DNA of 33,593 bases from Octopus sinensis (lineage: Eukaryota): the NCBI RefSeq assembly GCF_006345805.1, contig NW_021829937.1:1-33593 (forward strand), read 5' to 3'. Below are positions 1 to 33,593 of the stretch, piece after piece (the first letter of the stretch is position 1; every line of letters begins with the position of its first letter). Position numbers and translations under genes: made by a program. Below the pieces are notes generated by a model. The model searched no databases and was not told where the DNA came from. It saw nothing but the letters and a program-made list of their open reading frames with translations.

Positions 1-258
1 TCAAAAATCGACAAAATTCGGTTGAAAGCGGCAAAACTGCTAAATACTTTCTCCGATAAAGAGATTATCCCAAAAGCCTGGAACAACAGAGAGGTTCGTC
101 CTGAAAATCCCCGTCCGTACCGAAAATGCGTCGGGACAACGGCGGAACATCGGGAGAGAGGCTGCGCGAACTGCTGAGGGAGGCTGGGATCACCTGAATT
201 CTTCTTTCTTTTGGCGGTGGTTTTCTGGTTCAATAAATAAATAAATCCTATAAAAAAA
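1..258 (+). mobile_element. 3' end of the I/Jockey-like LINE (same sequence as 32618-32878)
   Basis: Continuation of the RT frame (...LRELLREAGIT*), followed by an (AATA)n/A-rich tail at 232-258. Confidence 0.8.
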
Positions 259-980
259 GCATGGAAATGACTTGATTGTCCGTGAGTTGACATCAAATGG
301 CTTTTTGTTCTTTGATCCACGTTTTTTGAAGCTCACAATAAATGGATCGCAGTTAAGTGTATATTCTCGGAATATTACAAGAAAGTCGAGAAACCAGAAA
401 GTATTTGCCAACTATATCCTGCCAGCGTGATTTCGTAGAAAAGATGGTGCTACAAAATATTATTAAAAATATTACAAACATCCAGTTTAAAATATGAAAG
501 AAATGTCAACATAAACCCGTAGGTTTACCGGAGATTTGACACGGGCACAGTGCATACACCACTGCATACCCCTTTCCTGCGCTATTGAGACTTTCTCCAC
601 GAGAGACCGGCGTTAAATTTACATTTTTGGTAAATATACGATGTCACCGGTTTTATAGCCCACCGGGTTGGATAACCCACCATCGAAAAAATACCAAAAA
701 AACATAAATATAATCTAAAAATCATCAGAAAATATAATTAACTTTAATTTCTTCCTTTTTATTATTTTTTATATTTCTGCCTGTTGCATAAATCACACAT
801 CATTCATTTGTGCTTTACATTTTTAAAATAAATAAAATTTTATTTATATTTAATGGGAGTCAATAAAAAATAAGAATTAATTCATTTAAAAAAATCAAAT
901 TTTTAATCAAATTTTTTTTAATCTACTTAAATGCACGTTTGATAGGTTTTCTTTATATCTTTATTAATAGTACACGTAGT
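1..980. repeat. Terminal direct repeat, copy 1 (matches 32618-33593)
   Basis: TCAAAAATCGACAAAATTCGG... at 1 and 32618; ...TAGTACACGTAGT ends at 980 and 33593; near-identical throughout apart from small indels. Confidence 0.97.
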
Positions 981-2120
981 TTCAAATTTTTCTGAAACTG
1001 TGTACTTATTTATATCCAGTTGTCATATAATGGGTATTTATTTATCGTCATTTTTAAAATAATTCGAATTTGACTCATCACTTAGTTCTGGATTTGTTCC
1101 GTCGAACATTAACAATGCATTATTTGATCTTCTGTTCTCCTTGAACTCTTTCCCATTGTCTGTTTGCAAGATAAACGGGGGTCGGATTGAGAAGAAAATC
1201 TTTTTTAACTTTCTTGTTTTATCAAAATATTTATTTCTTAAAAGAAAACAAAGAGAAAAGAGAGTTAACAAGAGGACTTCCCCGTCTCGTAGATGGAGAA
1301 GAAACAGTTTCCACGTACAATGGCAAGGGAAATCCTCTGAAAGAGCCATCCACACTCACGCGTGTCGTTTCTTTTGCGAGAAATCAGACGACCCAGCTTT
1401 TTGAGGAAAATGAGTGACCTGTCACGATTACGCCTGAGGTATCCACGGCGATCGGGGTAAACAGATAGCGTTCCGACAGATTGGTGTATTTTGAAATTTT
1501 TATTCTTCTGCTCTGCTCTACTTTCTTGTTATTTCTTCAGCTGATTTCGTTTTTTGCAGTTTTACCACTGCAAATTTGGAAAAGGAGTCGATTACAACAA
1601 CCAACTAAGACTTATTAAAAAAGACCCATCCATAATTGCTGTTAAGGTTTGAATTCTTAGATCCACTAAATCTACAATCAATAATTTTTAACTTTAGCTC
1701 ACTTTCTTCTAGAGTAAAAAAACGCAGTTTTTTATTTCTGACTTTTATATACGTTTTTTCAGGAACTTTGAAGCAAAAACGATTTTTAAGCGTCCTGAGC
1801 CTTCTCCTTTTCTCTTTATCGATATATAGTAGTGGTGTCATCAAAATTTTTTATTTCATTAAGTTGGTTTGTCGTTAATTTCAAAAGAACCATATTCTAA
1901 TGAACTTTATTGAACAACTCTACTTATTTTCACAGTTTAAACTTTATTAATAAAAAGTTATAGTTTTCACGCTAAAATATTAAAAAAAAAGAACAATAAA
2001 TTATAAAATAATTAAGAAAATCATTTTTTCCAATGAAATTAAATATATGAAAAATATTATTATTATAAAATATGTCAGTAGGTGGGTTATCCAACCCAGT
2101 GGGCTATAAAACCGGTGACA
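642..2120 (-). mobile_element. Ginger-like (integrase-type) DNA transposon, defective
   Basis: 40-bp TIRs TGTCACCGGTTTTATAGCCCAC(C/T)GGGTTGGATAACCCACC at 642-681 and 2081-2120 (1 mismatch); TGT...ACA ends; 5-bp TSD TACGA (637-641, 2121-2125). Minus-strand integrase core: DLVD..., YGW|LVVVIDSFSKF, KSAEEITRK|LKKIFFSIRPPFILQTDNGKEF. Confidence 0.9.
1219..1519 (-). mobile_element. 5'-truncated CRE-clade non-LTR retroelement nested in the Ginger integrase
   Basis: Minus-strand translation YLFTPIAVDTSG...WLFQRISLAIVRGN matches the C-termini at 16518-17182 and 21932-22405; 11-bp TSD ACTTTCTTGTT at 1208-1218 and 1520-1530. Confidence 0.85.
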
Positions 2121-2699
2121 TACGATATAATCAGATTGAAATTAATATTGATATGTTTATTCTTAAAGCAGGATAATTCCGAATTTAGTGTATATAACGC
2201 ATAGAGTTTTATGTGCACTATCTGCCCTTAAAAAACCCTGAAAAGTATCTCCTTTGGTGTTTGAATTAGGCGATAATTGTTGGGATGCACACATACGAAT
2301 GTTTTCAGAATCATTGAGGAGGACCGAAATGATGTATGTGAGCTTTATCTTTGTGAGTACTATGAATATTGTCATTTAATAACTATTTAATAAATTTTTG
2401 ATCGCTGTAACCTGTCGACTCAAAAAAGATTTTTTAATTTCAATATCTTCAATGATAAAATAGTTTTTAGAAATTATTAAAATCAAATGTAGTTATTGTC
2501 TGGTCAAATTACATAATTAAAAAGGAGAACATAATTATGATTCCAGAATAACAACGATTTTTCTATAATCAATATTTTAACACTTTAACACTTTTTATTA
2601 ACTTTCAAACGATAGTTACTCAAATCTTTTCTCCCAGATTATAAACTCAAATATATTTCGACATGCTAATTAAAAAAAAGCTTGCAATTATTTATTTAA

Positions 2700-2925
2700 A
2701 CCCAAGAAAATTGTTAAAAAACCTAGCTATTAAGTACTGGCTTGAAGGATTGAAAGACAATTCCCGCGTAAAACAGCCAGCGAGATCCTCTGAATAAGGA
2801 ATATAAATTTCCTGGGATCTCTGGAGCGATAGGTCCACAGACGGCCAAGCTTTTTAAGATGAGCAAGCGTCTTGGCCCTAAAAACACAGGAAGTCTCGAC
2901 GGCAATTGTTCAAAAGTAATGCATC
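2700..2925 (-). mobile_element. CRE-clade 3' fragment
   Basis: Reverse complement closely matches 22300-22420 (CTCCAGAGATCCCA...CAGAGGATCTCGCTGGCTGTTTTACGCGGG...TAATAGCTAG); contains a PIAVETS motif. Confidence 0.8.
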
Positions 2926-4319
2926 ATTATAAAAATATTTGATCTTGAATATTAAAATCAGTCGCAATCAGTGAAAAATTAGGATTAATAAAAATTGGAG
3001 GTCGTAAATAAAAAAAGTTTTCATTAATTGCTAAATTACAAAATATCGTTTATAGGATAAAAAAGGAAGTATTGGAAAAGAAATTTAACAGCGAACTTAA
3101 TTTTCACTAATTAGCAAGTATAAATACTGTATCGGGACGGGTTAAAATCTAACCGAATCAAAAAATGGAACCGATTGTGGCTATAGAAAACGAGGATTTT
3201 TACGAGATTGAAGATCTATATTGTTTTGCGGAAGAGAGGTCTTTCAGCAATTTTCCAATGATCATGAAGAACAATTAATCCTCTACAACTATTATGACTA
3301 ATTTTTTTGATTACTGTTTCTTAAATTTGGAAATTATTTTTATAAAGCCTGAGTTTTTCTAAGTCCATGAAACTCATAGATTGTAAGTGCTCTGAAAGTC
3401 AGTGGATCTACAATAGACTTCTTAAAAGTGTTCCGAACATACATGACAGATAATAATTGAAAAACCAGAGTGTTTTCTATGTCGAGTCAGCTTTGTTTTT
3501 TTAAACAGTGAATGCTGTAGTTGGTCGCGTATTCAAGAATGAGCCTCAACAAATAAAAGACAAATGAATTTTAAATTCAAACGTTACAATTCCACAAGTC
3601 AATATAAGCTATGATTCACGGATCTTCTGGGCTGTGTCCCCTGACTGATAAACGAACGAAGAAGATCTAGCGCCTCGTCTAATAGGTCCTGTGGTCTGTC
3701 TGGACTGTTCTCGCAGTCAATGAGACGTCTGGTAACCCGACTCTTACATTTTGAACAATGAAAGCGCATTTAGGGTCGCTTGGTTGTTCTTAGGCGTAAA
3801 AAGGTGAAAGGTCTCTTTTGGATTTTTTGACTTTCCAGTTTGTTGAGAAGACTTTGGGATTTTTTTGTTAGAAAAGAATGATGTTTTTTTTGTAATAGAC
3901 TAGAAGTTTTCTTGTTGAAACTTTATTGATTGTTAATTAACAATTTAAATCCAAACAGAGAGAAAATTATTTCGAATTATGTAATGCAATAATTGATTAT
4001 GTCTCTAGCGACCATGATGCCCTCATACTTGATAGGGTGAGTTGAAATTTCTAATAATTACTTAATAGTAATATTACGAAATAAAGGGGCGATACAAAAA
4101 TGAAGGGACGAATAAAATCGTCGGGTTTTCAGCACATCGATTCTTATAGGTCGCGAACTGCACATCTCGTAAAGACTCATTAAATTTATATATGTGGCCA
4201 ATATATATCAACGATTCTTCTTAACTGGTTTTTATATAAAGAATCCAACGACATAAATGATTTTTTGTAGATCCCCTAGTACCGGCGTTGTATAGAAGCA
4301 TTGACGGCGACGGCAGCTA

Positions 4320-5065
4320 ACATTTTTCTTTGGAATAGATAGACAGTTCCTCAATAAAAAGAGCCCAATGTGGCTATCCACAAAACGTAATTTTTCAGAG
4401 AGAAGGGAAAATTCCGATATTTTAGCTTTCATAACAGCTTTGATACAACTTTCGAAAATAGGAGATCCAAGAAAAATCAAGTCTTCTTTGAGGGGGAAGG
4501 TACATCCGGGTAGCAGTTTGTCGAATTCAGTCATCCACTTCCGAAAGGAAAGTTCGTCCGTGTTGAAATTCACAATTTCACATTTGCCGCAGTTGAATTA
4601 AAGCCCCAGCGCTCCGAAATTAAACACAAGCGACTTCAGCGTTTCCAAGATGTCTTTGGGGGTTCCTCTAATCATCCAAATACCACATTTTAAGGTCAGT
4701 TTTACACAATCTCGTTGTTTGGTGGATTGCGAGGGAGAATAAGAGAGGTCCCAGAGGGTCACCTTGTTGAACTCCATTGGTAGAATCAAGTATGTTGTCC
4801 CGAATATAAGCGCAGAAGGCTTGGAGTATGTCAAGTTGACAATCGGTAGGATGTACGGAATTTCTTTGGCGCAGGCTTCAAGGATACAGTCTCTTCTAAC
4901 AGAATTGAATGCATTCTTTAAATCGATCTTGGCCAGAATTCGTTAGGAATCCGTGAAAGAGTTAACAGACTCACGTAGACCGTGGACCCAGGCCTCGACG
5001 CCTCCTCGGATACAAACTCCGAGCTGTGTTGGTATGAAGTACGGTAGAAGTGCCCGAGAACCTGC
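4320..5065 (-). mobile_element. CRE-clade reverse transcriptase fragment (frameshifted)
   Basis: Motifs PTQLGV..GGVEA, KIDLKNAFNSVRRD, GVQQGDPLGPLLF, VWYLDD, FLGSPI and LLRNCLSIPK, spread across frames. Confidence 0.85.
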
Positions 5066-5196
5066 CTTTAATTAGATAATCTATCAGTTTATACTTTCTT
5101 ATAATAATATTTTAAATACAATATTAACTTTAATAGTAAAAATCAATTTTAAGTTTAAATAATTAATTTAAGTGCTGGACTTGATTTGTACGTCAT

Positions 5197-7280
5197 ATGT
5201 TAATTCAAAGAGTTCCTCATTTAATCAAAAAGTATAATTCTTTACTGATTTATCACTTTAGATATAATTACAGTAATTTAAATAAGCAAAATATAATAAA
5301 TATTCTACCAACCTACCATAATTCTCCACAAATCACAAAAAATGCCATTTTTTTAATCACACCAAACAGAAATTTAAACACAAACTCAAAATTGGACAAA
5401 GTAATCAAAAAACTCGAAGAAAATCAACTCTCAGACCCTCAAAAACCCACGTTAGACTCATCCCCGAAACACACAGACGTCGGAAAGACTCAAAAACCGT
5501 CTCTTAAAGACCGCTTTGTGAAGGAAGTGAAACATTACTACGACGGATTCCGCCTTTTCGCGATAGAACTGAAAATATCGGTTCGTCTTTTGACAAGAAT
5601 GTTACGTGGGCATTTCCTGACTAGAAGAGAGAGAAAACAGGCATAGATTGACATTAATTTTCAGTTAGTAAGGACCACTGCTGATTTGATTCGAATGGTC
5701 CCGTTGTTTATTATTATTTTGATACCCTTTTTGGAGTTGCTGATGCCGGTCTTTATAAAATTGTTTCCCAATATGCTGCCTAGCACTTTCAAAAATGAGA
5801 CCAAAGAACAGGAAATGGCTCGGAAAAGGCTTAAAGTTAAGCTGGAAATGGCAAAATTCTTACAAAATACGCTCGAAGAGTCTGTAACAGTAATCAAGAA
5901 AAATGACACCACAAGAACATCCAGTGTAGAAGAATTTGTTCAATTTATGAAAACAGTAAATATTAATATTTAAATAATTAATTAAATTAGATCCGCAACA
6001 ATGCTGAAATGCCAGAGACATCTCAAATTTTGAAATTTTGTAAATTATTTGAAGACGACCTGACCATGGATGGACTAAACAGGGACCAGCTGATAGCAAT
6101 TTGTCGTCTTTTGGACATGTCGACCCTCATCAATCCAACCTCGACTGTCCCACTCCTCCGATTCCGACTGGGCATTAAGCTCCGAATGCTGAAAGCCGAC
6201 GACAAAGTACTCCCAACTGACCAATTCAGATGATCCAATTAGAAGGAGTAGAAAGTCTCACTTCAGCAGAATTGGTCTCCGCTTGTAAAGCCAGAGGAAT
6301 GCGAGTGTTTGGACTGAGGAAGAACGACTCAAACAACAACTCCAACAGTGGCTGGACCTCCATATTGACCACCAAGTCCCTGCTTCTCTCATGTTGTTGT
6401 CGAGTGCGCTCTACGTTCCTCCAAATTTACCTGTTGAAGAGAAATTGAAGAAAACAATTCTTTCCCTTGACCAAGACACGGTTATAGATATTTCTGGATT
6501 GATAGGAGGAGGATGTCAAGTTGAGATGGCAGAGGAGAGTGGAGAGGTTATTTCCAACACGGACAGACTTGTTGTTGTTCTCAACGAAGAAGAGGCCATT
6601 AAGGACGACCACAGTGAGAAGAGTCCGGACATATCCGCACTCCCTGATGAAAATAACGTGGATCATGTCAACGTTCAATGTGATGACTTGGAAACGATTG
6701 AGAACCTCCTAATTCAGGCAGTCGACCACCGTAATCTGAGTTTGTCCTCCAGAGAATTCCGTGAATTGCAGGATGGGATCACGGAATATCAACAGGTGTG
6801 TTTACCATATGTTTAGAACATGGAAGAGTTAGAAAGACTGTTGATTAAAAAAACGTACCTTTGAGTGAGACCAGGGCTTCCAAACTATTGCGGGGCCGAC
6901 TGGCAAAGATGATTGAAAAAATGTCTTCCTCCACTCCCCAACCCGAGAGTGGAGATCTTCGCATGTTTTTGTAGCCAATGAGTTGTTTAGGCAGCAGTTG
7001 GTGAGCATTGACGAAGTTTTGGACCATTTGAATGACTCTGCAGGAAAGAAGAAAAGTTGAGACTGATTTTGGGGACCATCGACGACGATCGTGATGGAAA
7101 AATTGACGTGGAGAGAATTTTGAGGGTATTTATTCATTTTTTTATTTTCTAGGTTTTGAGGCAATTGGTAATCCTGACTTTGCATTGAGCAGTGAACAGA
7201 TATCTGATATGCTTAGACTTACTCAAAGGGAAAATGAGTTGAAGGACATACAAGTGGAAGAAGATGTGACCAGTAAATAG
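5197..7280 (+). CDS. LETM1: LETM1 mitochondrial inner-membrane cation/H+ exchanger (7 micro-introns; 5 apparent 1-nt deletions)
   Basis: KEVKHYYDGFRL, LTRRERKQ|LVRTTADLIRMVP..IPFLELLMPVFIKLFPNMLPSTF, KVKLEMAKFLQ, ACKARGMR, QQLQQWLDLH, and EF-hand DDDRDGKIDVE. Introns: 5641-5664 (GC-AG), 5956-5990, 6207-6229, 6481-6505, 6796-6816, 6949-6974, 7126-7152. Stop TAG at 7278-7280. Confidence 0.95.
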
Positions 7281-7488
7281 TTTATTTTGTACTAATATGT
7301 TTTTTCTTACTTTGTTTAGTGATTTTAAAATAGTTACAATTTTTTAATTGAGAATTCCTGTTTTTTGGTCAAAAATTGATCCAGAGAGTTTTTTATTGTT
7401 GATGTCTAGTTTAACTTTCGGTATTAAGAACTATAACTAAAATCTTATTATATTCGAAAAATTGTGTTAGTAACGTTAGAAAATGTAA

Positions 7489-10400
7489 CTACATTAAATA
7501 TCGGATCAAGAAACCAATTCCCATTATTAAATGGAATATTCCTCTGGGGATATTTTTCGTTTTTTCGTTATTGCAATTTTCAATATTTTTTTCTATCATC
7601 TCGAATTTTGGCATTTTTTCTATGCCATCAAGAAAAAAAATTTGTGCGAATAGTGGTAAAGATTTCCCATAACATGAAGCTAATGTCAGGATGGTTTCAT
7701 TTAGAGATCTAATATAGGCTCATAAATAAAATAAACTCGGCGCTAAGTCTTAGGTCTGACATTCCAGTTGCATTGTCTGGAAATTGTGCCAATTTTAATA
7801 AATAACTAGCTCGGCAGCTCGCTTCGCTCACCGCGACCTAGCTCCTGCGGAGGGCCTGTTTCATCAAACAACTATAAGTTTATGTAGATGTATAAAACTA
7901 CCTGTTTAATGTAACCCTATTCTATCGCCTGTTGATAAACGATGTTTGTCGTCCGTCCTTCCTTGGCATATATGAATAAATTTTCTCTTCTGCCTACCCT
8001 CGAACATCCCACATACAGCTGTCCATGTGAAAAACACTCACTTCTAAAAATAACCCAACTACCTTAATGACTGTCCCTGGGCCTTGTTTATTGTCATTGC
8101 AATTTTTTTTTCATTTTTTGTGGTTTATTTTTTTATATTTAATTTTTCTTTTTCCTTTGTAATTTCCTTTTTTTTCTTTTTTTATTTTTACTGGCGGAAA
8201 TGTGGCAGGGGGAGATGCGGCAGGCGGAAATGCGGCAGGCAAGAAAGCGACACACAAAAAAGATTTAATTAATTACCTTATTAAGCTGACCGTTTTTTCT
8301 TCAGCTTCGTTTTTCCTCCTTCGGTTATCTATTTAAAAAATTATTTTGAATAATAAAAAGTTTAGGAAAAGAGGCATACCGAAAATAAATTCTATTTACG
8401 AAAAACTCAAGTAAATAGTTAATATTTTTACGCAAATTCTTTCTGATTGCGCTGTCAATTGGTGGTAAATTGTGTTAATGGTTGTGCTAATGTGGTTTCA
8501 ACTATCAAAGTGTATTTCAAAATCTGTTAATTGCACACTCTATTCAAGGTCGTGCGTCAATTGGTGGTAAATTGTGTTAATGATTGTGCTAATGTGGTTT
8601 CAACTATCAAAGTAGTTTTTCAAAATCTGTTAATTGCACACTCTATTCAAAGTCGTGCAATCTGTGATTGCCAATTCTGTCAAAGTAAAATATGATAATA
8701 GCTTTAATTTGATTCATGGTCGATAATGATATATGCATTTAATTTTAAGAGAAAAACATAGGATGAATTGAATTTCTTTATCGCGAATAATTGGGAGTTC
8801 ATCATTGTTAATATTCTCGCTGTCGTTTTCATCAAGGATATTCTTAATACGTGAGATTTTGCTTGAGGTTTTAAGGACCTCATCATGAATGTCGAGGACA
8901 TTCGCGTTGTTCATTTTAATCAAAATGCAGAAAATAATTTTTGATTTTTGGGGGGAAGGTTTTAAGGACTTCATCATGTAAGTCGAGGACATTGTAGTTG
9001 TTCATTTTAACCAAAATGCAGAAAATTTTTTTTAATTTTTTTTGGGGGGAAGGTTTTAAGGACTCATCATGTAAGTCGAGGACATTGTGTTGTTCATTTT
9101 AACCAAAATGCAGAAAATTTTTTTTTAATTTTTTTGGGGGGAAGGTTTTAAGGACTTCATCATGTAAGTCGAGGACATTGTAGTTGTTCATTTTAACCAA
9201 AATGCAGAAAATTTTTTTTAATTTTTTTGGGGGGAAGGTTTTAAGGACTTCATCATGTAAGTCGAGGACATCGTAGTTGTTCATTTTAACCAAAATGCAG
9301 AAAATTTTTTTTTAATTTTTTTGGGGGAAGGTTTTAAGGACTTCAATGTAAGGAGGAGGACATTGTAGTTGTTCATTTTAACCAAAATGCAGAAAATTTT
9401 TTTTAATTTTTTTGGGGGGGAGGTTTTAAGGACTTCATCATGTAAGTCGAGGACATTGTAGTTGTTCATTTTAACCAAAATGCAGAAAATTTTTTTTAAT
9501 TTTTTTGGGGGGGGAAGGTTAACGACTTCATCATGTAAGTCGAGGACATTGTGTGTTCATTTTAACCAAAATGCAGAAAATTTTTTTTTAATTTTTTTGG
9601 GGGGGAAGGTTTTAAGGACTTCATCATGTAAGTCGAGGACATTGTAGTTGTTAATTTTAACCAAAATGCAGAAAATTTTTTTTTAATTTTTTTGGGGGGG
9701 AAGGTTTTAAGGACTTCATCATGTAAGTCGAGGACATCGTAGTTGTTCATTTTGACCAACGCAAGAAAAATTTTTTTTTAATTTTTTTGGGGGAAGGTTT
9801 TAAGGACCTCATATGTAAGTCGAGGAAATCGTATTGCCAATTTGAAGTTGGTGTGCACACACAGGGACAGACAGACAAGACACACAGACAGACAGGACAG
9901 ACAGACACACACCATACCATTTTATTATTAAGATATATTTTTTTTGGTGAAATTTCATACTAAAATGTATTAACAAAATCACCACTCCTTCTGGAATCAA
10001 ATTATTTAATATTTCTCTAGAATACTCGGATTCACGTTGATCGTTGTCTGTTCTAATGATTAGTTGTAAATGCGTTAATACAATCTCAAATCAAATAATC
10101 TCCGATTTTCTTCTGATCTATCAATCTTTATGATAACTAAAAATTAATTATTCCAATGTGATTAAAACATTGTGTTAATTGTTCAATTCCAATATTGTAG
10201 AACTATACATTCTTATTAAAATTTAATACTGTCTTTTTTCTCTTTCTGGGGATATTTCAAATTCCCATTTCGTTTATTTCTTGAATCGTCTTTTTTTACT
10301 TGAATAATTTTTAAAATGTTGTTTAATATTGGAGAAGCTTTATTGAAATCATCCTCATAGTCTATAATCTATTAAATTAACAATTTAACCATTATAGTTA

Positions 10401-10764
10401 ACATGTCCTATTCCATTGTCATAGCTAACTTCTCGAGGAAACAAATCCACTCCCACGGGAATATTAACCAATTTGAATACCAAATAGTTTAGAAGATCTG
10501 GTTGAAATTTCTTTAATTATATAGTTTAGAAAAATAAATTACATAATCTATTGGGATATTTATCTCGTCCATAGTAATAATATAAGTTTTATCTTCATTG
10601 AGATTGCTTTTAAGATCATTTAAAATCACTTACATTGTAATAGAAACACTCATTTTTAAACCATTGGTTTTGTGAAAGGCGATTTCTATTTCTTAAACAT
10701 ACATTTAATTAAAAGAACTTTCATTATTAAGCACAGTTGCAAAGGAAAATAGAATAAGGAACAT
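7489..10764 (-). CDS. Unknown secreted, putatively GPI-anchored protein; multi-exon; interrupted by a Helitron (middle exons unresolved)
   Basis: ATG at 10764 gives the signal-like MFLILFSFATVL. GT-AG introns of 27, 27 and 32 nt keep frame in the first exons. With 7806-9933 removed, the frame reads YEISPKKIY|YLLKLAQFPDNATG..., then a 28-nt intron, then ~73 stop-free codons ending in the hydrophobic tail GIFHLIMGIGFLIRYLM* (TAG 7489-7491). Confidence 0.6.
8192..8238. repeat. 15-bp tandem repeat x3 (GGCGGAAATGCGGCA-like) inside the Helitron
   Basis: ggcggaaatgtggca / gggggagatgcggca / ggcggaaatgcggca. Confidence 0.8.
8454..8658. repeat. ~103-bp tandem duplication inside the Helitron
   Basis: GTCAATTGGTGGTAAATTGTGTTAATG...CACACTCTATTCAA(G/A)GTCGTGC occurs twice in a row. 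Confidence 0.9.
8866..9828. repeat. ~93-bp satellite, ~11 copies, inside the Helitron
   Basis: Unit GGTTTTAAGGACTTCATCATGTAAGTCGAGGACATTGTAGTTGTTCATTTTAACCAAAATGCAGAAAA-Tn-AA-Tn-Gn; units differ mainly in homopolymer length. Confidence 0.97.
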
Positions 10765-10899
10765 TTTCTTTAAGCGGATGATTTCCTTTTATATTGAATT
10801 AAATATATTCATGACGTCACATATGTAAATGAAAGTTTAATTGGGTCATATATTTTCTTTCAAAAGTTCTAACAGAATATACAAAATCCTAAGTTAGTT

Positions 10900-11900: not shown

Positions 11901-12227
11901 AGCAGTTAGATAAGGCTAATGTTCTTAAAACAACTCTAAAGACATCTCGTTCGATCATCGTAGCTTTTTCCAAACATTAAGTCAGCAACAGACGCTCAAC
12001 TACACTTTCTTGAAAGTTTGCAGAGCCAGAAAAAAAGATGAGAGGCAAGAAGAACTTTCTTTGTTTACATCGAACGCTCAGTACTCAATTAAACAGTTTA
12101 GTAAAAGTGTTAAAAAAATATTTTCACGTTTAGTAAAAGCCACTCATGTTTTGTAAAGTTGATTAATTAGTTTATTAATAAGAATTAAAGATTGACATAA
12201 AAATATCCAATTTATAAAACGACAAAT

Positions 12228-19769: not shown

Positions 19770-21154
19770 CTAATCTTCGTCGGCCTCAACTGGAAATCTG
19801 AGAATAGCACATACACCAGTCATCATGGAGACTTCTACAACAATGAAATAAATTACACGTTTTCCAGAAGAATGCTGACACGAAAGGATCTTGACGCGTC
19901 CATTTCCTCGCCGTATGTCCTCGACAAGACCTCTGTACGTCCTCCGAACACACACGTCCTCATCTCTTCTCAATAACAGAAAATCCAGAACCTCAACAAC
20001 TCATCAGTTATCAATAGCGTATCTACAGCCATCAAATCACGTGCCTTTAAGACATGTTTAGGTCTAAAATGCGACAAATCAAAAACCCATAAATGGCTCG
20101 TTCAGAATCGTTCTCGAGAAGTTTCATGAAGCGATTCAACTCTTTGATCTCATCAACAACTTGGACGTTTTCAAATTTAGAAATGACCTTGGGATCTTGC
20201 AATATTTCTATATTAAATCACTCCACAAACAAGAACGTTGGAGGGAATGTTTAAAACCAGAAGAAGAGTGAACAAGGAGAAATTTTGATTTATTTTGTGC
20301 AAGAACTTTATTTTCCAAAAGAACTTTATCATCCATTATGTACTTATAAAAAGACTCCTTCAAATTTATAAGTAAAAATACTCTATAAAATCCTGGGGAT
20401 GCAATAATAATGCATTTCAACACTACTACTAAACATATTTAAAAAACCATCAAAATTCGCATTTTTAAGCAACGAACGAAGCAACTGTTGATGAAATTTA
20501 TCCACTTGCTGTCATTTACCGACAAATAACCAAACTTTATTAAAATCGCCCATAAAATTGGGTCGTTTCCTGGGAATATTGACTTGAATCTTATCTCGCT
20601 CAATAGTCATAGACTTGGTAATCAGACAAACATAGGCAGTTCCCTCCTGCATTATAATCGCCATGAGATCAGAATTGGTCATTGGGTTGACTGCCTGACT
20701 TAATCTCTCAACACAGTATGAGTCCCATTCTGATTTCCCCAACGTGACTTGTCGGCCGATACCCAACTCTAAAGTGTGGTAGGCTCCGATCTGAGTATAA
20801 ATATATAAAAGAGGACCTTTACATATTTGTTCTCACATACATTCTTCCCTTCTACTCTAATCGTTGCTTCTTTAAGATCAACGTCAATTTTTTCTGATCG
20901 AATTGTGAGTTGAGTTTTCACTTTACAAGTCGTGACGGTCCCTGATGATGATTCGTTCACGACTTTTCTGTTATTAGAAGATTATTTATAAATTACCTTA
21001 AAGCATCTGATCGGAAAACGTCTCCGATATTCATAATGTTATAAAGGGACCAAATATCTTCGGAATCCTCGGGAAGTAAGCTTACATAACTTTATTTATA
21101 TACAAATATGTACCCATCCTGACCAATTGGAGGTATTCTTCCATATATTTTCAT
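19770..21154 (-). CDS. PELO: Pelota/Dom34 ribosome rescue factor (10 micro-introns of ~22-29 nt)
   Basis: LLPEDSEDIWSLYN, RKVVNESSSG, VEGKNVCENKYVK|IGAYHTLEL, MQEGTAYVCLIT, IPRKR, CIIIASPGF, LVHSSSGFKHSL, TGVCAILRFP; the frame is intact after splicing. Confidence 0.97.
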
Positions 21155-21460
21155 TTTCTATTATTTATAGGGTGTTTAAATATATTTAATTATATAATAA
21201 ATATAGTTAATATGTGGACTTTATTTTAAATTAAGTCTTTTAATGTTATGCCAGTAGTAGCTATTAGACATTTGGGGCCTAATAATGAATCAATGGCATT
21301 AAATAGATATATTTAAAATATTTATATTGACGTACCACAAGAATCCTATCCTGTATATAGTTTATTAGAAAATTATTAAATATAATATATATTTATTAAT
21401 AGTAAAGAAAATATTAAATATTATAAAAATTTATTTTGGATAAAAATTGGAAAAGTTCAA

Positions 21461-22538: not shown

Positions 22539-23276
22539 ATGTCAAAACAACTAAAAAAGCTTACAATAATGAAGCAACTTAAAGATTTAAAATTCGATAA
22601 AACCAAGCCTTTTACTATCAACATTCCTGCAGGCGCTGCCGCTCCAGTACCCCCTCTTGGCCCAGCCCTTGGATGTGTTGTCATTTTACAACTATTTATA
22701 GAGAAACATTCAAATTGCTGCATTTTGCAAGGATTTTAATGAAAAAACAGAATCTCTCAAAGTCGGCTACCCAACTCCTACCACAATCTCTATAAATGTA
22801 ATGTCGAGCTTTATTCGAAGGCTGATCGGTCTTGTAATACTATTATTCATCCTCCTCCCATAGTCTTTTTGGTCAGACTCGCGGCAGGAGTGGACCCTAA
22901 TTCGGATGCACCACGTGAGCATATATTTAATAATTATTTTATTACTCAATTTAAATTAGAAAATTTTTAATCTGGAAAAATTATTATATTTAATAATTAT
23001 TTTATTACTAAATTTAAATTAGAAAATTTTTTATCTGGAAAAATAACATTAAAGCACGTGTATGAAATTGCACTCGTACAGGCTAAGGATCCATTCCTGA
23101 GAGGCCATTCCCTCCAGTCAATATGCAGAACCGTCGTTAAGGAAGCTCTGAGTGTTGGTATAAGTGTCGTGGACCACATCGATCCTACAGAATATAAGGA
23201 TTTTCTTCAAGGACAAGAGATTGAATATCAGCAATATTTGGTCCAACTTCAACAGAAACGAATTGGAATAAAATAA
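22539..23276 (+). CDS. MRPL11: Mitochondrial ribosomal protein uL11m
   Basis: IPAGAAAPVPPLGPALG, IAAFCKDFNEKT, GKITLKHVYEIA, and the metazoan mito-type C-terminal extension IDPTEYKDFL. Introns 22677-22701, 22798-22820 and 22915-23022. Confidence 0.95.
22922..23045. repeat. 63-bp tandem duplication spanning the MRPL11 intron-3 acceptor
   Basis: ATATTTAATAATTATTTTATTACT(C/A)AATTTAAATTAGAAAATTTTT(A/T)ATCTGGAAAAAT occurs twice; AGs at 22958-22959 and 23021-23022. Confidence 0.9.
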
Positions 23277-23847: not shown

Positions 23848-25675
23848 CAGTGGTTCTCAACGGTGGGCGATTCGCTTCCTAGGGGCGATTTTTTTTGGTA
23901 GGGGGGCGATGGCTGATTGCTATTATTTGAAAAATTAAAATCTTATGTTAGAAGTCGATAATCTTTGAAAAAATAAAGATATATAATCGAGTCTAATAAC
24001 ATGATATTTTTATTATATTTTATTTAAATTTCTAAGCGTGATTTCTAGTTATCTTTATGGGTCGTGTTCAAAAAAAGTCAGAATGTATAAAGATGAATAT
24101 ATTTCTCTCGGATTTATTAAAGATCCTCAAGATCCTGATAAACCACTTTGTCTTCAATGTGGTACAATTTTTTCGAATAAGGCAATGAAACCGTCTCGTT
24201 TGATTGAACATTTAAAGCGAAAACATCATAATTCAATTGGAAAAAAGCCAGACTTTTTTCTAGAATTAAAAAAGAATTTTGAAAATAAAAACACCTTACC
24301 GTCAATCTTTAATAAAAATATATCTCAAAATGTCTCTGGATTATCTTATTCATATAAAGTTGCAGAGACAATCGCAAAAACTGGTTGCATTATTATTTTA
24401 ATTTATAGGTAATGCCCATTCGATTGCAGAAAATGTCATCCGTCCTTGTTTAAATTTATTTATAAACGATATCTTAAAAAAAGATTCTTCAAATATTATG
24501 AAGACTATTCCATTAAGCAACGACAGTATACGAAGAAGAATTGATGAAATTTCTAATGAAATTGAACAATCTTTAATTTTATTTCTCAGAGAACGCAAGT
24601 CTTCAGTCCAACTTGACGAATCAGTTGTCGTTGATAATCAGTCAATTTTGATGGCATATGTAAGGTATTACTTTTTATAAATACTTTTTATAAAGATATT
24701 TCGATGATGATTTTATTTTGCAAGAAGAGTTATTATTTGCAAAATCTTTAGTCACGGATAATACAGGATTGTCAATATTCAAAATGTTTGAATCTTATTT
24801 ATTCTTAAATGATATTCCATTTGAACATATTTTATCGTGCGCAACTGATGGCGCAATGGCTATGGTTGGAAAATATCGTCGTTTTTTTTAGCTTTTCTAA
24901 AACAAAAATCTCCAATGTCCCCTTCAATTCATTGTATTTTACATCGGCATCATTTAATTGCAAAAAAGGAGATTATGTTAATTTAATTAATTGCAAACGA
25001 ATTATAAATACATTCATTGAAAAAATTCAATTTTACAAATTTAATTTAAGTAATAGAAAATTTGGAAATTTCGATTTTTATGACCACACTTTTGATGACA
25101 ACGATCTGAAAATTTATGAATTTCATTTAGAATCTTTGGAACAAGATTTGAAAAAAGATTTGAAGATTTAATTAATTTAAACTTTTCTGATTGGATGATT
25201 AATCCTTGGTTGCCCATTCATTATGATTCTGATGATGAATGTCAAGAAGAAATAATAGAACTAAAAAACGACGAAGAACTGAAAATAAAATTTAAAAATG
25301 AAAACCTGACACAATTCTGGAGAGAAAAATCTATAAAAATGAAATTCCCGAAATTATGGGAAAAAATGATGCCAATAATAATAGGTTTTCCTACGTCATA
25401 CTGCGTAGAGAGAGGATTCAGCACTCTGAATAGTATGATCGGAAAAAAAAGAAACAAACTAAATATAGAAGAAAGAGGCAACATTAGAATTACACTTACG
25501 AAAAGAAGTACAAATTTTGAAAAACTTGTCAATCTTCATCAACCACAAGGATCTCATTAAAACTCTTATTTTTTAAATAAAAATTTTTACTAATGAAATA
25601 AGGGGGCGATATAAAAATTGGAGGGGCGAAAAAAATTCCAAGGGGGCGATACAAAAAAAAGGTTGAGAACCACTG
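23848..25675 (+). mobile_element. Buster-type hAT DNA transposon with internally deleted transposase
   Basis: 14-bp TIRs CAGTGGTTCTCAAC / GTTGAGAACCACTG; subterminal GGGGCGAT repeats. BED finger PLCLQC..MKPSRLIEHLKRKH, PLSNDSIRRRI, QLDES, CATDGA, HCILHR, FPTSYCVERGFS. Introns 24384-24408 and 24665-24695; the region after HCILHRHHLIAKK is missing (~24967). Confidence 0.95.
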
Positions 25676-25999
25676 ATTTAAAATGTAACAGGAAGGGTAT
25701 TTTCCCGTGGAAAGAAAACAAACATATGAAAAATCTGATTTAATTTGTTTTGATGTATAAAAACGATGTATTTCATTGTACAGAAAATTTATTTTATTTT
25801 TCATGTAATTTTTTTCAATTTAATAAATTTTTGTAATTTTATTTCCCTATTTTTATAAGTTGAATTTGGGGAGTTCTTTGCAGATTTTCCGGCAAAACTC
25901 CTAAGACACAGCCAATAGCGATAGACAGCTTTTCTCATCTTTTTTAAAATCGAAAATTTCTTCAGAAATTTTTAATGTCGTCAGAAATCAATTTAGTTA

Positions 26000-26390
26000 C
26001 ACTCAGAACGTTAATGTTTGATACAAAAGTTCTTTTTAAAGAGTTGGTTTTTGTACAAGCAAATGTTGCTCCTGAGTGTGTTTTAACCAACACGTCTTCT
26101 TTGAATAAATTTACTAATTTCATCTGCATCAAATGAACCATCAGTATAGTCAATAATTCCAGTCAGCACTGTGTCCTCATTTTTTATTGAACAAACAAAT
26201 TGTTAAATACGTCCAAGTTAAAGCCAGATTTATCAAAGAAAACAATTTTCTAATTCTTTCTAAGCATCATATCAGATGCATATACCGCCCTTTTTTTCAT
26301 GATCTCCTTCAAAGGATATTGAGGCTCTTTTTACAATCTCTTTTTAGGCCAGTTTCTCTTGTTGAAACACTCATCTTTGTTTTTGAGATA
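26000..26390 (-). mobile_element. Possible IS630/Tc1-like transposase remnant
   Basis: KIVFFDKSGFNL resembles the first-D motif (IFIDESGFNL); otherwise highly degenerate. Confidence 0.35.
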
Positions 26391-26396
26391 ATAATA

Positions 26397-28086
26397 TGTC
26401 ACATGGGCGACTATGTCGCTATGGGCAGCCAGTCCTTTTACGTGTTTCTATGGAAACTGCAGAAAAGGTATTAAATATTGAATATAGCAATTTATATATG
26501 GAAGAGTGTAGATTAATCAATTATTCTAATTAAAAATTACATTTGAATTATCTTTTAAAAATGGCTTACCCAAAACTATATTAATTTTAACAGCGTGGTT
26601 ACTCACACTTTGTGATGTCTGGGTTTAAGGGTTACGTCAGAAATATTTACGAATACAATCAAATTAAGGAAGCGTTAATCGGGATATTCCCGGAGGATAT
26701 GAATGCTCGAAGCAAACACCGGTTGGCCAAAAAGGCTTCCAATTTTTGTCAAAAATGTCAGAAGAATCGTCAGCAGAAACATCATTTAATTTTGAGTTAG
26801 GGTTAAGGTTAGGGTTCAGATTTTGAATATATTTATGTTGTCACTTGCCAACGTTAGGGTTTAGGTTAAGGTTAGGGTTAGATTTTGAATATTTATGTTG
26901 TCACTTGCCAACGTTAGGGTTTGGGTTAAGGTTAGATTTTGAATATTTATGTTGTCACTTGCCAACGTTAGGGTTGGGTTAAGGTTAAGGTTAGATTTGA
27001 ATATTTATGTTGTCACTTGCCACGTTAGGGTTTGGGTTAAGTTAGATTTTGAATATTTATGTTGTCACTTGCCAACGTTAGGGTTAAGGTTAGATTTTGA
27101 ATATTTATGTTGTCACTTGCCAACGTTAGGGTTAAGGTTAGATTTTGAATATTTATGTTGTCACTTGCCAACGTTAGGGTTTGGGTTAAGGTTAGGGTTA
27201 GATTTGAATATTTATGTTGTCACTTGCCAACGTTAGGGTTTGGGTTAAGGTTAGGGTTAGATTTTGAATATTTATGTTGTCACTGCCAACGTTAGGGTTT
27301 GGGTTAAGGTTAGGTTAGATTTTGAATATTTATGTTGTCACTTGCCAACGTTAGGGTTTGGTTAAGGTTAGATTTTGAATATTTATGTGTCACTTGCCAA
27401 CGTTAGGGTTTGGGTTAAGGTTAGGTTAGATTTGAATATTTATGTTGTCACTTGCCAACGTTAGGGTTTGGGTTAAGGTTAGGTTGTTAGATTTTGCAAT
27501 ATTTATGTGTCATTGCCACGTTAGGGTTTGGGTTAAGGTTAGGTTAGATTTTGAATATTTATGTTGTCACTTGCCAACGTTAGGGTTTGGGTAAGGTTAA
27601 GGTTAGATTTTGAATATTTATGTTGTCACTTGCCAACGTTAGGGTTTTGGGTTACGGTTAAGGTTAGATTTTGAATATTTATGTTGTCACTTGCCAACGT
27701 TAGGGTTTGGGTTAAGGTTAGGGTTAGATTTTGAATATATTTATGTTGTCACTTGCCAACGTTAGGGTTTGGGTTAAGGTTAGAGTTAAAGTTGTTACAA
27801 ACTTTGCAAAAAATTTGATGGAAATTATAATTTGCTAATTGTGCAATTTATATTATCAAAAATAAAAATAATTCACATTATAATTTGCTATGTTGTAAAT
27901 AATTTTACTATTTAAAGCAAGCATGGTTCAAATATAAAACCATTTCCTCAAAATTTAAAGTTCAATCATTAGTTCGAATCGTTTGCCTTTATATTAGTTG
28001 GCCTTTTAGTAAATATTTGCTATGTAGTTGCCATGGAAACACGTCAAGGCCAGGTTGCCCATAGGGGTCTGATAACCCATGTGACA
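26397..28086 (+). mobile_element. Ginger-like non-autonomous element carrying a telomere-like satellite
   Basis: Imperfect ~65-bp TIRs TGTCACATGGG...CTATGGGCA...ACGTGTTTC / GAAACACGT...TGCCCATAG...CCCATGTGACA; 5-bp TSD TAATA (26392-26396, 28087-28091); integrase N-terminal remnant FPEDM..KHRLAKKASNF|CQKCQK. Confidence 0.85.
26796..27790. repeat. ~47-62-bp satellite, ~17 copies: constant core plus variable TTAGGG-like tract
   Basis: Core ATTTTGAATATTTATGTTGTCACTTGCCAACG followed by TTAGGGTTTGGGTTAAGGTTAG(GGTTAG) variants. Confidence 0.97.
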
Positions 28087-28729
28087 TAATAGGTCTTAGA
28101 GAAGGTTTTATGCTTCAAGTCTTTTTCTTTTATTTGATATTTGATTGATATTTTCGATTCAAATTTATATTTTCAGCGTGAGGTTTGAGTAATGTTAAAA
28201 CTAAATTTAGTAAAAGAACTGGTTGATAAAGAATTTTAAAAAATAAACCATAAAAATATTAAAAAATCCATTTTATAGCTAAACTCATCCATTCTGTTTA
28301 GGAATTGTCCATTTAACCCTGATATAGTTTTTTTTCCTTAAAAAATAACGTTTTATAATTTTTTATGTGTATTGGTGTTGTATAAGGTCCTTTGCAATAT
28401 ATGTCAATAATCTCAGCTTGTAAATATCTATTACTACAATATATAAACATGGGATATCCCCTTGAACACAATACTATCTGAAATTTATGGTCCCAGGTTG
28501 ATGATTATTTTTAAGATTGATTTCAGCACATCATGTTTTTTAGTTCGTTTATTTTTAATTAACTTTTGGATTTTAATTTTAAAACGATATTTATTAAGTC
28601 GTTTGTGAGAAAACTGAATTGATATCTTAGAACTACCATATCTTGCTTCCTAATTTATTTCCTTTTATTTAAGTTTAGTTGGTCAGTAAAAAGCCAAAAA
28701 TAAAAAATTAAATCTATTTGAAAATAAAG

Positions 28730-29208
28730 TCAACTCCAAAACATGGAAGCAATTCGATTGACAATGGAAGAAAAAGACGAGACTTGATTAGGATTCCACA
28801 AATTGGATTTATTGAGAAAGGACTGCCAGCCTCCTCTGGACTGAATGAGTGAAGTGTATTCAACATGGCCGTCAATGTGCTCAGAAAAGGCAGTGACGAT
28901 CCTCTCCACGGCGTCAGGCCAGAGATATGAGATGGACCGACAGAACAACATGAACATCATCAAACGGCCACACACGCCAGAATTGGAACCATTCTCCACA
29001 TTTGCAAGGATCATTTCGATTTTGATTTGATGGGAATGTCGATGGAGGACACTCCTCGATTGACAATTGTTAGATAGTCCTGTCGCTCGGATATGAGCTC
29101 GTCAATCGATTTATCAGGGTTGGAGGTGAATTCGGAGTGGATTGCTTCACAGTTCTCATTTGATTGAGCAATTGTTTGGAATAATTCGAAAGTGGATATA
29201 ACAACCAT
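28730..29208 (-). CDS. Divergent Bcl-2-family protein (one apparent 1-nt deletion near 29020)
   Basis: BH1-like VCGRLMMFMLF, BH2-like LIQSRGGWQSFL with plausible spacing, BH3-like SIDELISERQDYL. ORFs 29011-29208 and 28730-29014 join if the A4 run gains one base. Confidence 0.7.
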
Positions 29209-29398
29209 TCACAACAACACAAAAACAATTCTAATCAATATTATGTACTATTAATTTTGAAAATTAATATAATAATTATTATTAAAAATAAATTAATTAA
29301 AATATATTATGTACAATATAAAATTTAATTTTAAAATAATTATAAATCTATAGAATTTTTGATCAATATTAGATTTCTGTCAAACAATATTAGAATCA

Positions 29399-29476
29399 TG
29401 AGGCCAGTAATTAGCTTAGCTATCTTTTCACTTCCTTATTGTTTTGGTAAATTAATTTATTGTGCTCCAAAAAAAA
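29399..29476 (+). mobile_element. 78-bp extreme 3' stub of a CRE-clade element with poly(A) and 13-bp TSD
   Basis: GCCAGTAATTAGCTTA..TATCTTTTCAC.TCCTTAT matches 17171-17207; TSD AATATTAGAATCA at 29386-29398 and 29477-29489. Confidence 0.85.
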
Positions 29477-29549
29477 AATATTAGAATCACGTTAATCAAT
29501 AATATAATTTTAATTTAAGTGGTTGGTCAATTAATTCTGAATTTGCTTC

Positions 29550-30780
29550 TTATAAACACACAAATTAGAAAATCAAATCTAATTGGAAGACTTAAATTTG
29601 ATGTTCTGTTTTTTGATCAAAAAACTGGAATATGTTTTACAAATTCTAATTCTAAAAAATCAGAAATATTATTTCGGTTTTAGTTTAGTTTTCGATAGAG
29701 AGCCTTTCAGTATGTCTTAAAATTGTTTATATAAATTCAGCTGTTTTTATGATTAAGTAGTGCTTGGATTATTTACTCTAAATCTTTGTCGCACTACTCA
29801 ATGATTATATTCTCCTCCTGTTTCATTTTATTAAATCACAAAACAAATAGCTGAACTATCTTCATTAGAAACACAGTTATTCCTTTTTAGTGTACGGCCG
29901 ATAAACAACACCCCAAACTGATTATACCGCTCTATAATATCTTGCTTTTCAAATACATCAAGTTCACAAATTTTTTGAGATATAGATATCTTTATGCATC
30001 ATTACAATAATCCAAAAAATATCTGGGGTTTATTTATTGTAGAGAAAAGTAAAATTAGTGAATTTTTGAATGTTAGTTATTTGATGATTTAAAAAGGACG
30101 AATAGTACAAAATTCTAAAATCATAAAAATGTTTTACTAGTAGTGTTATTGGAATCACGTTTGGTATAATCTGGATTGAATTAAAACATTATTTCCTTAC
30201 TTTTAGCAAAAAAAGTTATCATTTAATTCAAGACCTTTGATACTCGATTGTAGTCTTTTTATTAATTCACTCTCGGTTTTATTTTTTATTAATTCACAGA
30301 TACGAACATCTAACTAAACTAAAATGAAATATAAATCTATTTTACGTCTGTGTTTATGTTTTCTTTAAAATTCAGATTAAAACTAATTTACCTTCTAGAA
30401 TTTGTTTGCAAATTTCAATTTCTCTGAAATTATAATTTTATTATATCTATTATTTTCAGTTGTTGTATTCCCATCATCTGCAAAAATGAAAAAAAGTGAA
30501 ATACTTTTATCTACTCCTGAAGTAATATTCATACTATAATCAAATTAAATATTATTTACATTTTCGTTACATTGCTCTTTGTCATAAATGTCACTGTGAG
30601 CAAAATGGTCAGGAAAATCTTTTCTTTAAAGGAATCGTTATTTGTTTTATACTCTTATATTTTACTTTAATTTTGTACTATATTTCTAATTGCTGGTTAA
30701 AATAAATCAATAAATATTTCTATTCTATTTTAAATGCAAACTTTTGTTCAAAATACAAATATTTATGTACTAAATTGGTG
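29550..30780 (-). other. Possible micro-intron-rich gene or pseudogene of unknown product
   Basis: Several GT...AG segments of 23-30 nt on the minus strand (e.g. gtaaataatatttaatttgattatag, gtatttcactttttttcatttttgcag); no continuous frame or homology established. Confidence 0.3.
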
Positions 30781-30799
30781 AAATAATTGATAAACGATT

Positions 30800-32878
30800 T
30801 TTAGTTTGACAAACCCCTTACAACGAGAAAAATTCACTCACCTCACCCGATATTACTATTTGCTCACCACGACTGGCACATCTTGTTCATTAGTCCGTTA
30901 ATTTTGATTTGGGAGCGATCACAACCTATTCTTATCAAAATCAATTGCACCCCATCGACCCGGTCAAAGCATGCAATATTTCACGATTACGCTAATGCCG
31001 ACTGAACAGGATATAAAAAATATGTTGATTCATCCCTATGGAACTTTCATCCTCAGAATTTCAACTCCCTCGACACGGCAGTCAACTGCTTTAACAAAGT
31101 TATTCTAAAGGGGAGAGATCTATTTGTAAGAAAGGAGTCCTGAAACTCACGAAAAGAAAATACGACGCTAAAACAGTCAAACTAATAAAAGAAATCGCCT
31201 CAAACACAGTACACATCTGACGAAATTTACAACGAGAAGGATTCGGGTATTGAACATGGAGATCGCAGAAAGTGCGAGACGAGTGCAAAAAAGAAAATTG
31301 GACCGAGGGATGAACAAAAAATGCTCACTCTCGAAAATGTGGAGATGCTGCGTAACATTAAAAACGCCGACAGTACAAACGAAGATAAGTCACAAGGCTT
31401 ATAAAAAATCGGAATCCTCTTCAATTATTAAGGGCAAACCGAAAAGGGAGCCTCCATAATCGTACTTCCTACTCAAGAGTCGCTTTAGAAATTCCCGACT
31501 AAAGAATACACGCTCCTGCGGACCAGACGGAATCCCAGCGATCATGCTCAAAAAATTGGGCGATGCAGCTATCTCTGCACTTACGAGTATTTACAACTAC
31601 TCGTGCAACTTCAATTTCATTCCAACATTATGGAAACTGTCGTGCATTCACCCAATCCTGAAGCCTGGAAAACCGAAGGAGCAACCTGGATCATACAGGC
31701 CACTGTCCCTTTTATGCGTCCAGGCACGAATTCTAGAGAGAATGGTGATGACTTTGATTCGCCCCCTTCTCCCAGAAGTCAGTTTCCAACATGGATACAA
31801 AGAGGGGCGTTCAACTGTCACACACCTAAATGCTTTAATGAAGTTTATATCAGACGGTCTAAACAAGAAACCTAAACAGGAAAAATCCATTGTCTGCTCG
31901 ATCGGCATAAAGAAGGCTTTCGATTCGGTCCCAAGGAAAATACTCACACAAAAGATCTATTCCTCAAATATTGATACGAATCTAAAACTATGGCTTAAGA
32001 ATTTCCTGAGCGGCCGTCGGGGAAGGGCTTGCTGTGAAAACAGATCTTCCATATTGAGACTATTACCAAATGGGGTCCCTCAGAGTTCTCCACTATCTCC
32101 ACTTTTATTCAATCTCATGATGAACGACATACCACAGCCAGAAGGGGACAACGATCTGTTATTACTATATGCAGACGATATTATCGTCGCATCAAAGGAT
32201 GTGAGCATAATAAAAGCAACGGATAGAATACAGGATAACCTCAACAATCTGAGTTCATGGCTATATAAAAACGAACTGGAGGCAAGTCCGGAAAAATCTA
32301 TTTTGACTCTGTTTACGAAAAACAGAAGGCTTGGGAAAGTCTCAATTGAAGCGAAGTTAGACGAAGAAATTATACCGCAGAGCAAAACCCAGAAGATTTT
32401 TGGTGTTACATTCGACACCTTTCTAACCTTTTCAACCCACGTCGAAAATGTAGTTATGGCGGGTGCAAGAAAGGTTAACTTTCTGAATGCCTTCCTGAAG
32501 AACGCAGGAGAATGCAAAGGCCTATATGGCCTAAACAACATATATAATCAATACTTGGAACCTACGATCGGCTATGCGTGCGGTATCTGATGAACAAACT
32601 TAAGTGCAAACAATCAATCAAAAATCGACAAAATTCGGTTGAAAGCGGCAAACCTGCTAAATACTTTCTCCGATAAAGAGATTATCCCAAAAGCCTGGAA
32701 CAACAGAGAGGTTCGTCCTGAAAATCCCCGTCCGTACCGAAAATGCGTCGGGACAACGGCGGAACATCGGGAGAGGCTGCGCGAACTGCTGAGGGAGGCT
32801 GGGATCACCTGAATTCTTCTCTCTTTTGGCTATGACGGTGGTTTTCTGGTTCAATAAATAAATAAATCCTATAAAAAA
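30800..32878 (+). mobile_element. 5'-truncated, degenerate I/Jockey-like LINE (APE C-terminus + RT)
   Basis: SPDITICS...LG-SDH (APE), GPDGIP, KPGKP...SYRPLSLL, KKAFDSV, GVPQSSPLSPLLFN, YADD, KIFGVTFD. Stops and substitutions at conserved sites; (AATA)n tail. Confidence 0.92.
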
Positions 32879-33593
32879 GCATGGAAATGACTTGATCTCC
32901 GTGAGTTGACATCAAATGGCTTTTGTTCTTTGATCCACGTTTTTTGAAGCTCACAATAAACTGGATCGGCAGTTAAGTGTATATTCTCGAATATTACAAG
33001 AAAGTCGAGAAACCAGAAAGTATTTGCCAACTTATACCTGCCAGCGTGATTTCGTAGAAAAGATGGTGCTACAAAATAATATTAAAAATATTACAAACAT
33101 CCAGTTTAAAATATGAAAGAAATGTCAACATAATTCCTTAAACCCGTAGGTTTACCGGAGATTTGACACCGGCACAGTGCATACACCACTGCATACCCCT
33201 TTCCTGCGCTATTGAGACTTTCTCCACGAGAGACCGGCGTTAAATTTACATTTTTGGTAAATACTTCGAGTCACCGGGTTGGATAACCCACCATCGAAAA
33301 AACTACCAAAAAAACATAAATATAATCTAAAAATCATCAGAAAATATAATTAACTTTAATTTTTTTCTTTTTTATTATTTTTTATATTTCTGCCTGTTGC
33401 ATAAATCACACATTCATTCATTTGTGCTTTACATTTTTAAAATAAATAAAATTTTATTATATTTTAATGGAGTCAATAAAAAATAAGAATTAATTCATTT
33501 AAAAAAATCAAATTTTTAATCAATTTTTTTTAATCTACTTAAATGCACGTTTGATACTGTTTCTCCATTATCTTTATTAATAGTACACGTAGT
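32618..33593. repeat. Terminal direct repeat, copy 2 (matches 1-980)
   Basis: Same LINE 3' end, flank and Ginger left end as 1-980. Confidence 0.97.

Follow-up and report, generated by a model that had tools for sequence, protein, structure and literature searches.

Contig C6408 (NW_021829937.1) of the Octopus sinensis assembly GCF_006345805.1 (2.72 Gb, 13,516 contigs) is 33,593 bp long, and this whole stretch is the window examined here. It carries two gene-bearing segments linked by two mobile elements. Segment A (245–23847, forward strand), delimited by contig comparison, holds genes for LETM1, an exportin-like protein, pelota and MRPL11, and segment B (25676–30814, forward strand), which is also found after unique DNA in the 279,572-bp contig C8459, holds a Bcl-2-like gene. 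Where A ends, a hAT transposon (23848–25675, forward strand), again delimited by contig comparison, connects it to the start of B, and where B ends, a full-length long interspersed nuclear element (LINE) of about 2.05 kb (30815–32864, end approximate, forward strand), recognized by an RVT_1 match, leads back into the start of A. The two ends of the contig repeat one another, which led the initial annotation to propose a gene-bearing circle or minichromosome, or else a head-to-tail duplication; our analysis better supports the duplication and weakens the circle and minichromosome.

Genes and Mobile Elements

Three of the gene labels given initially were borne out by Pfam matches above the cut-offs. 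The LETM1 gene (5197–7280, forward strand) matches PF07766 and has seven private gaps of 1–2 bases that look like consensus errors, compared with 28 in the LETM1 of C8459. The pelota-like gene (19800–21155, ends approximate, reverse strand) matches both eRF1_1 and eRF1_2, and the ribosomal protein L11 gene (MRPL11-like; 22539–23276, forward strand) matches PF00298. The label XPO6 holds in part: the gene at 12200–15913 (ends approximate, reverse strand) is exportin/importin-beta-like, but XPO6 itself was not confirmed, as Pfam gave just an IBN_N match below the cut-off (E = 7e-4) and PDB sequences gave no match. Open frames at 18300–19340 are kept in two further contigs, C10363 (421,444 bp) and C12596 (247 kb), and had no Pfam match.

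The candidate Bcl-2-like gene (28730–29208, reverse strand) is intronless, and its window copy carries single-base gaps. The window frame had no match in Pfam, PDB sequences, the homologue search or the Atlas, but a 78% paralogue on C9076 gave an Atlas lead of 0.94, and a single-sequence model reached a pLDDT of 45. As a lead, this suggests a Bcl-2-like gene that has diverged enough to escape Pfam. It is present in at least five places: the window, C8459 twice (the extra copy at C8459:128915), C10363 and C9076. Nearby, window positions 29793–30814 belong to a local repeat family with three more members in C10363 and one each in C12596 and C8459 (84–93% identity), and the window member is cut by the LINE at 30814.

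Segment A also contains an element at 642–2120 with TGT...ACA ends and a 5-bp target duplication, which is present in the window and C8459 and absent from C10363 and C12596. Its earlier name, Ginger, may apply on the strength of the element ends and a motif read by eye, but there was no Pfam match. A multi-copy mobile element with a satellite of about 94 bp (7805–9925) is private to the window copy, and a fragment of a non-LTR element with an A-rich tail (16455–17255, forward strand) is absent from C10363 and C12596, C8459 stopping short of it. In segment B, a second TGT...ACA element with a satellite of about 58 bp and a 5-bp target duplication (26397–28086) is likewise private to the window copy, its site being empty in C8459, C10363 and the short-read run X1. 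In total, four insertions in the window are absent from all other contigs spanning their sites.

Source Organism

The initial guess of a dicyemid fits what we found. All six LETM1 introns drawn in the window copy are miniature, at 21–35 nt; one of them (5641–5664, drawn by eye) is 24 nt long and of the GC-AG type. Introns in Dicyema have a median length of 27 bp in the accessible text of PMC6543705, and the accessible text of PMC6736024 gives a mean intron of 38 bp and a heterozygosity of 1.24%. A different LETM1, 48–61% identical and with a gap of about 3.1 kb between two exon matches, lies on the chromosome-scale contig C2, and this divergent host gene rules out a host origin for the window. 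The source is a cobiont of the octopus with tiny introns, likely a dicyemid that was sequenced along with its host. No named dicyemid was among the LETM1 homologue matches listed (120 of 447). The cobiont LETM1 exon is present on only four cobiont contigs; the C12596 copy is labelled as an octopus protein in a public database, and the host gene set is thus contaminated with genes of the cobiont.

Contig Ends

Comparison of the window with itself using BLAST confirmed the end redundancy noted initially, with 1–980 matching 32618–33593 at 93.9% in an alignment of 1002 columns that has 13 mismatches and 26 gap openings (E = 0), and a period of 32,617 bp; no exact overlap of the ends was found by this search. 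The repeat holds the LINE 3′ end, a unique flank at the start of segment A, and the left end of the Ginger-like element, and joining the contig ends makes both elements continuous. This had been noted initially, and C8459 has the joined form, running from 33593 to 981 without a break and with the overlap present once, which rules out a true terminal repeat of a linear molecule. A single transposon at both ends is also ruled out, since the repeat covers two elements and a unique flank. The two copies are not the same sequence. An 8-bp deletion common to C8459 and the first copy is missing from the second, in which the inverted repeat of the Ginger-like element has a separate deletion of about 16 bp. 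The 8-bp indel is a real variant and is shared with other contigs.

We compared the ends of 44 other contigs, taken from search matches sharing repeats or genes with the window, using the first and last 3–10 kb only, so that longer overlaps would escape. Two of these self-close and 42 do not; both are among the 16 contigs of up to 40 kb, compared with none of the 28 longer ones. C12669 was flagged by the script, and C12074 was recognized from two adjacent matches that the flag missed. Overlap lengths on all three overlapping contigs, the window included, are 980/976, 991/1011 and 996/988 bp, a range of 976–1011 bp in what is a small sample. A further set of 16 host-like and three cobiont-like contigs had no end overlaps, too few to show enrichment (C4350 was dropped from the host controls as it is not whole). 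The anatomy of C12074 (26,076 bp) resembles that of the window, in that the linear contig C11448 enters it at 15604, passes the join once and exits at 1938. Part of C12074 is common to C11448 and C500, and by eye its entry point adjoins a frame that starts like histone H3, with a WD40-like frame near its end. In C12669 (24,865 bp) the first 739 bases recur internally, and a 4.1-kb tandem duplication is present.

Because its length stays fixed on unrelated contigs, the overlap points to software, and the 1-kb repeat is probably a join left where the assembler path re-enters a stretch already used. One assembler uses a fixed node size of 1 kb, though another may have been used here. Long-read assemblers can leave duplicated starts and ends on contigs (Wick and Holt, PMC6966772). 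The window resembles the overlaps in the accessible portion of that paper in having duplicated, error-bearing sequence at both ends and an arbitrary opening point inside elements, but those overlaps come from true circular replicons, whereas the cycle in the window has long linear contigs running into and out of it. It also differs from an assembler overlap drawn from one molecule, where errors alone would separate the ends. The biological joins are the hAT and the LINE rather than the contig ends, a point that the initial annotation overlooked.

Segments and Junctions in Linear Contigs

All segment A genes are also present in the 421-kb and 247-kb linear contigs, where A is inverted (C10363:74399–52544 and C12596:80503–56315); in C8459 it runs in the window sense up to 16229. 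C8459 enters the unit from unique DNA, here called Y, at window position 25679 and continues through the join, so that it independently has the order B-LINE-A after Y. C10363 starts with the hAT and a second copy of segment B, B′ (C10363:1727–4180), in the window sense after the same hAT end and 48 kb from A, and exits at 30814 into other unique DNA, Z. C12596 begins with broken same-sense pieces of A, followed by Z. From 30 to 130 kb, C10363 and C12596 look haplotype-like, with many element-insertion differences and a tandem duplication of about 16 kb in C12596.

Together the contigs fit one linear order, Y-B-LINE-A-hAT-B′-Z-inverted A-X, within which the window is the cycle B-LINE-A-hAT between the direct repeats B and B′. 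The order has two duplicated segments around a normal one and two inverted junctions. This is the arrangement of duplication-normal-inversion/duplication (DUP-NML-INV/DUP) alleles, which, along with DUP-NML-DUP alleles (two duplications around a normal stretch) with a cryptic inversion, appear as megabase human disease alleles in the accessible text of PMC9851044. As in the DUP-NML-INV/DUP alleles described there, two duplicated segments with a normal one between are cross-linked by two inverted junctions. Unlike those human alleles, the present one spans about 75 kb, whole transposons fill both junctions, and phase is inferred from contigs. The two junctions lie in cis in the window only.

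Neither junction is a simple insertion, as the flanks are unlike and come from different sites. The hAT, with zf-BED and hAT dimerisation matches just below the cut-off, is flanked by two unlike 8-mers, each with an empty site in another contig. Both 8-mers have the form nnnTAnnn, which we take to be the hAT target consensus and which agrees with a hAT pair in C8459. The LINE shares its 5′ end with other LINE copies, and its junction flanks are also unlike. Both junctions lack a target-site duplication, and each of the four junction sides has an empty site in another contig; the A-end site has three copies, two of them empty, and the B-start site is found in three contigs. Recombination between two hAT copies is a possible origin of the hAT junction. 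A reciprocal product with a matching 8-bp site was not found in the assembly, a weak negative.

At C8459:13861–18333, corresponding to window 1707–1902, the hAT pair just mentioned consists of two 2.1-kb copies, inverted to each other, with 190 bp of inverted sequence between them. Each of the two 8-bp target sites recurs as an inverted duplicate, and one copy has a 382-aa open frame. Because C8459 has this hAT-flanked inversion, hAT-linked rearrangement happens in this unit. In maize, alternative transposition of reversed Ac/Ds ends yields circles and tandem duplications (PMC3744419, accessible text). The window is like that system in that its hAT sits where a duplication is joined, between two differing 8-bp flanks that are true target sites. 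It is unlike that system in its inverted join, in having a LINE at the second junction, and in that no reciprocal product turned up.

Relationships among Copies

In 8997 clean columns of segment A, 55 sites join the window and C8459 against the inverted pair and 6 conflict, with private sites numbering 47 in the window, 47 in C8459 (some in alignment clusters), 38 in C12596 and 13 in C10363. Counting isolated substitutions, the window differs by 0.64% from C8459, its nearest assembled relative, compared with 0.49% between the haplotype-like C10363 and C12596. This divergence and the four insertions absent from other contigs imply that no assembled chromosome was the template of the window copy; a circle cut afresh each generation would need such a template. 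Relationships shift along A, and in the exportin part the window differs from C10363 by 0.24% and C10363 from C12596 by 0.57%.

Segment B of the window is a composite. Its left part is nearer B′, with 20 sites private to C8459 and 8 to C10363 in 1566 clean columns, and its right part is nearer B, with 20 sites private to C10363 and 5 to C8459 in 467 columns, the switch falling between about 29160 and 30250. At the contig ends, the window end groups with the window start and C8459 at four substitutions (a fifth lies at the LINE tail), and with the inverted pair at the 8-bp indel. The piece of A at the start of C12596 lies between the two groups (4 vs 7 of 11 sites). By these sites, both the window end and the C12596 piece have the look of a third copy, which is what a second tandem unit would give.

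Short-Read Contig Depth

Short-read contigs from run X1, which contain 0.65 of the words, covered the window from about 14 kb to 293 bases short of its end; this run may be from the same sample and is not independent. Runs X2, X3 and X5 had small shares and were left out of the evidence, and no RNA run was among those listed. Depth in X1 was 79–108 over A and 86 over B, figures that are not copy numbers and have no single-copy flank as a baseline. It was 145 over the Bcl-2-like part, of which C8459 has an extra copy, 79–96 at five single element-deletion or skip joints and 129–246 at other joints. Among the rows listed, none decided the state of the four junctions. These values give no hint of amplification or clear gain of A and B, a weak result.

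Origin of the Contig

We favour, with a rough probability of 0.55, a reading of the contig as a single unit from a head-to-tail repeat on a chromosome, set within a complex inverted duplication. The hAT and LINE joins would first have put A, in inverted form, between direct copies of B on its two sides, through either aberrant transposition or the recombination of element copies with one another. Unequal crossing-over between the direct repeats B and B′, each about 5 kb, could then have added a B-LINE-A unit, bringing hAT-B-LINE-A into one molecule, after which the copies would have been inherited, diverged and gained private insertions. In support of this repeat, contigs enter and leave the unit via Y and Z, the broken A at the start of C12596 fits a decayed second unit, and the left and right parts of the window B show the pattern expected of a crossover.

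Several observations weigh against a chromosomal repeat of this kind. No contig with two full units was found, nothing links the window end to the start of C12596 (a gap from 980 to 10887), and the A-hAT join is present in the window only. The many 1-base gaps in the window and the contig ends that carry the junctions are a sign of thin coverage. Contigs of X1 pass 18169 and 29233 unbroken, and in that run the window copy may be rare and some of the arrangements at contig ends rare or missing. The switch within B is explained equally well by unequal crossing-over, by looping out and by an assembler switch, and, as relationships shift along A, gene conversion or mixed genotypes may lie behind the third-copy argument.

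An assembler loop is unlikely, though it accounts for several of these points. Here there would be a single unit, Y-B-LINE-A-hAT-B′-Z, and the collapse of B and B′ would have sent the path A-hAT-B′ back into B-LINE-A, making the duplication real and the cycle not. Window 1–29233 is the exact bridge from where C8459 ends to where C10363 starts, the window B turns from B′-like to B-like between about 29160 and 30250, and the uniform 1-kb overlaps, the thin coverage and the similar pattern in C12074, passed once by a linear contig, are all in keeping with it. The hAT-B of the window, however, is more than a simple splice of the two assembled copies, since it lacks both the insertion at 24455 and the 1-kb deletion of C10363 and has the private element at 26397–28086. 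In addition, a real indel separates the two window ends, and the stretch needing to be spanned is just 2.7–5 kb.

A sporadic or inherited extrachromosomal circle seems doubtful. Recombination between B and B′ on one chromatid would have looped out the 32.6-kb B-LINE-A-hAT, giving the same cycle and the same crossover in B as the chromosomal repeat. An X1 contig that crosses the site of the private element in B lacks it, which gives the window copy the look of a minority form; the making of circular DNA has been reported for dicyemids (PMC6543705, accessible text); and two further contigs of 25–26 kb self-close. These points are offset by ends that are not the same sequence, by a distance from the nearest relative that exceeds the haplotype-like one, by the four private insertions with no assembled template, and, weakly, by the lack of any sign of amplification. 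The long linear contigs, which enter from and exit to unique DNA, show at contig level the pattern of a linear duplication, and an overlap recurring at the same length on unrelated contigs further weakens the case for a circle or minichromosome.

For circles described from Dicyema in the accessible text of PMC6543705, the median length in the long pool is 702 bp and the only domains are mitochondrial; they are under about 1 kb, non-coding or mitochondrial, and share short motifs of 12–20 bp. The window is like them in its probable taxon and in having been found by terminal repeats in an assembly, and unlike them in its unit of 32,617 bp, its intron-bearing nuclear genes and its linear counterparts. 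It is also unlike a minichromosome, as A is also in C10363 and C12596 and B in C8459 and C10363. Among the papers and passages covered by our literature search, none describes gene-bearing dicyemid circles of tens of kb, although the supplements of PMC6543705 may list longer circular contigs. A programmed somatic circle or minichromosome, in which development excises gene-bearing blocks from dicyemid chromosomes, is very improbable: developmentally regulated Dicyema circles (Noto et al. 2003, as cited in the accessible text of PMC6543705) and the self-closing of 2 of the 16 other contigs up to 40 kb speak for it, but the described circles are short and mitochondrial, the same genes sit in 247–421 kb linear contigs, 42 of 44 sister contigs do not close, and the junctions are two polymorphic transposons in a unit that needs a prior inversion, which a fixed programme would not use.

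Implications

It is a long shot that dicyemids shed and keep circles of 25–33 kb with essential nuclear genes, looped out between transposon-bounded repeats. If they do, a size class 30–40 times larger than the known dicyemid circles would have its first members in this contig, C12074 and C12669, and defined junction primers would allow a test of the long-standing question of genome rearrangement in the somatic cells of dicyemids. The best reading is an ordinary one, a transposon-linked complex duplication together with an assembler overlap, and this makes the contig a clean example of how end overlaps can mislead the search for circles in dicyemids. Read in this way, the chromosomes of the parasite have been rearranged at transposons, and housekeeping genes and a Bcl-2-like gene have been multiplied.

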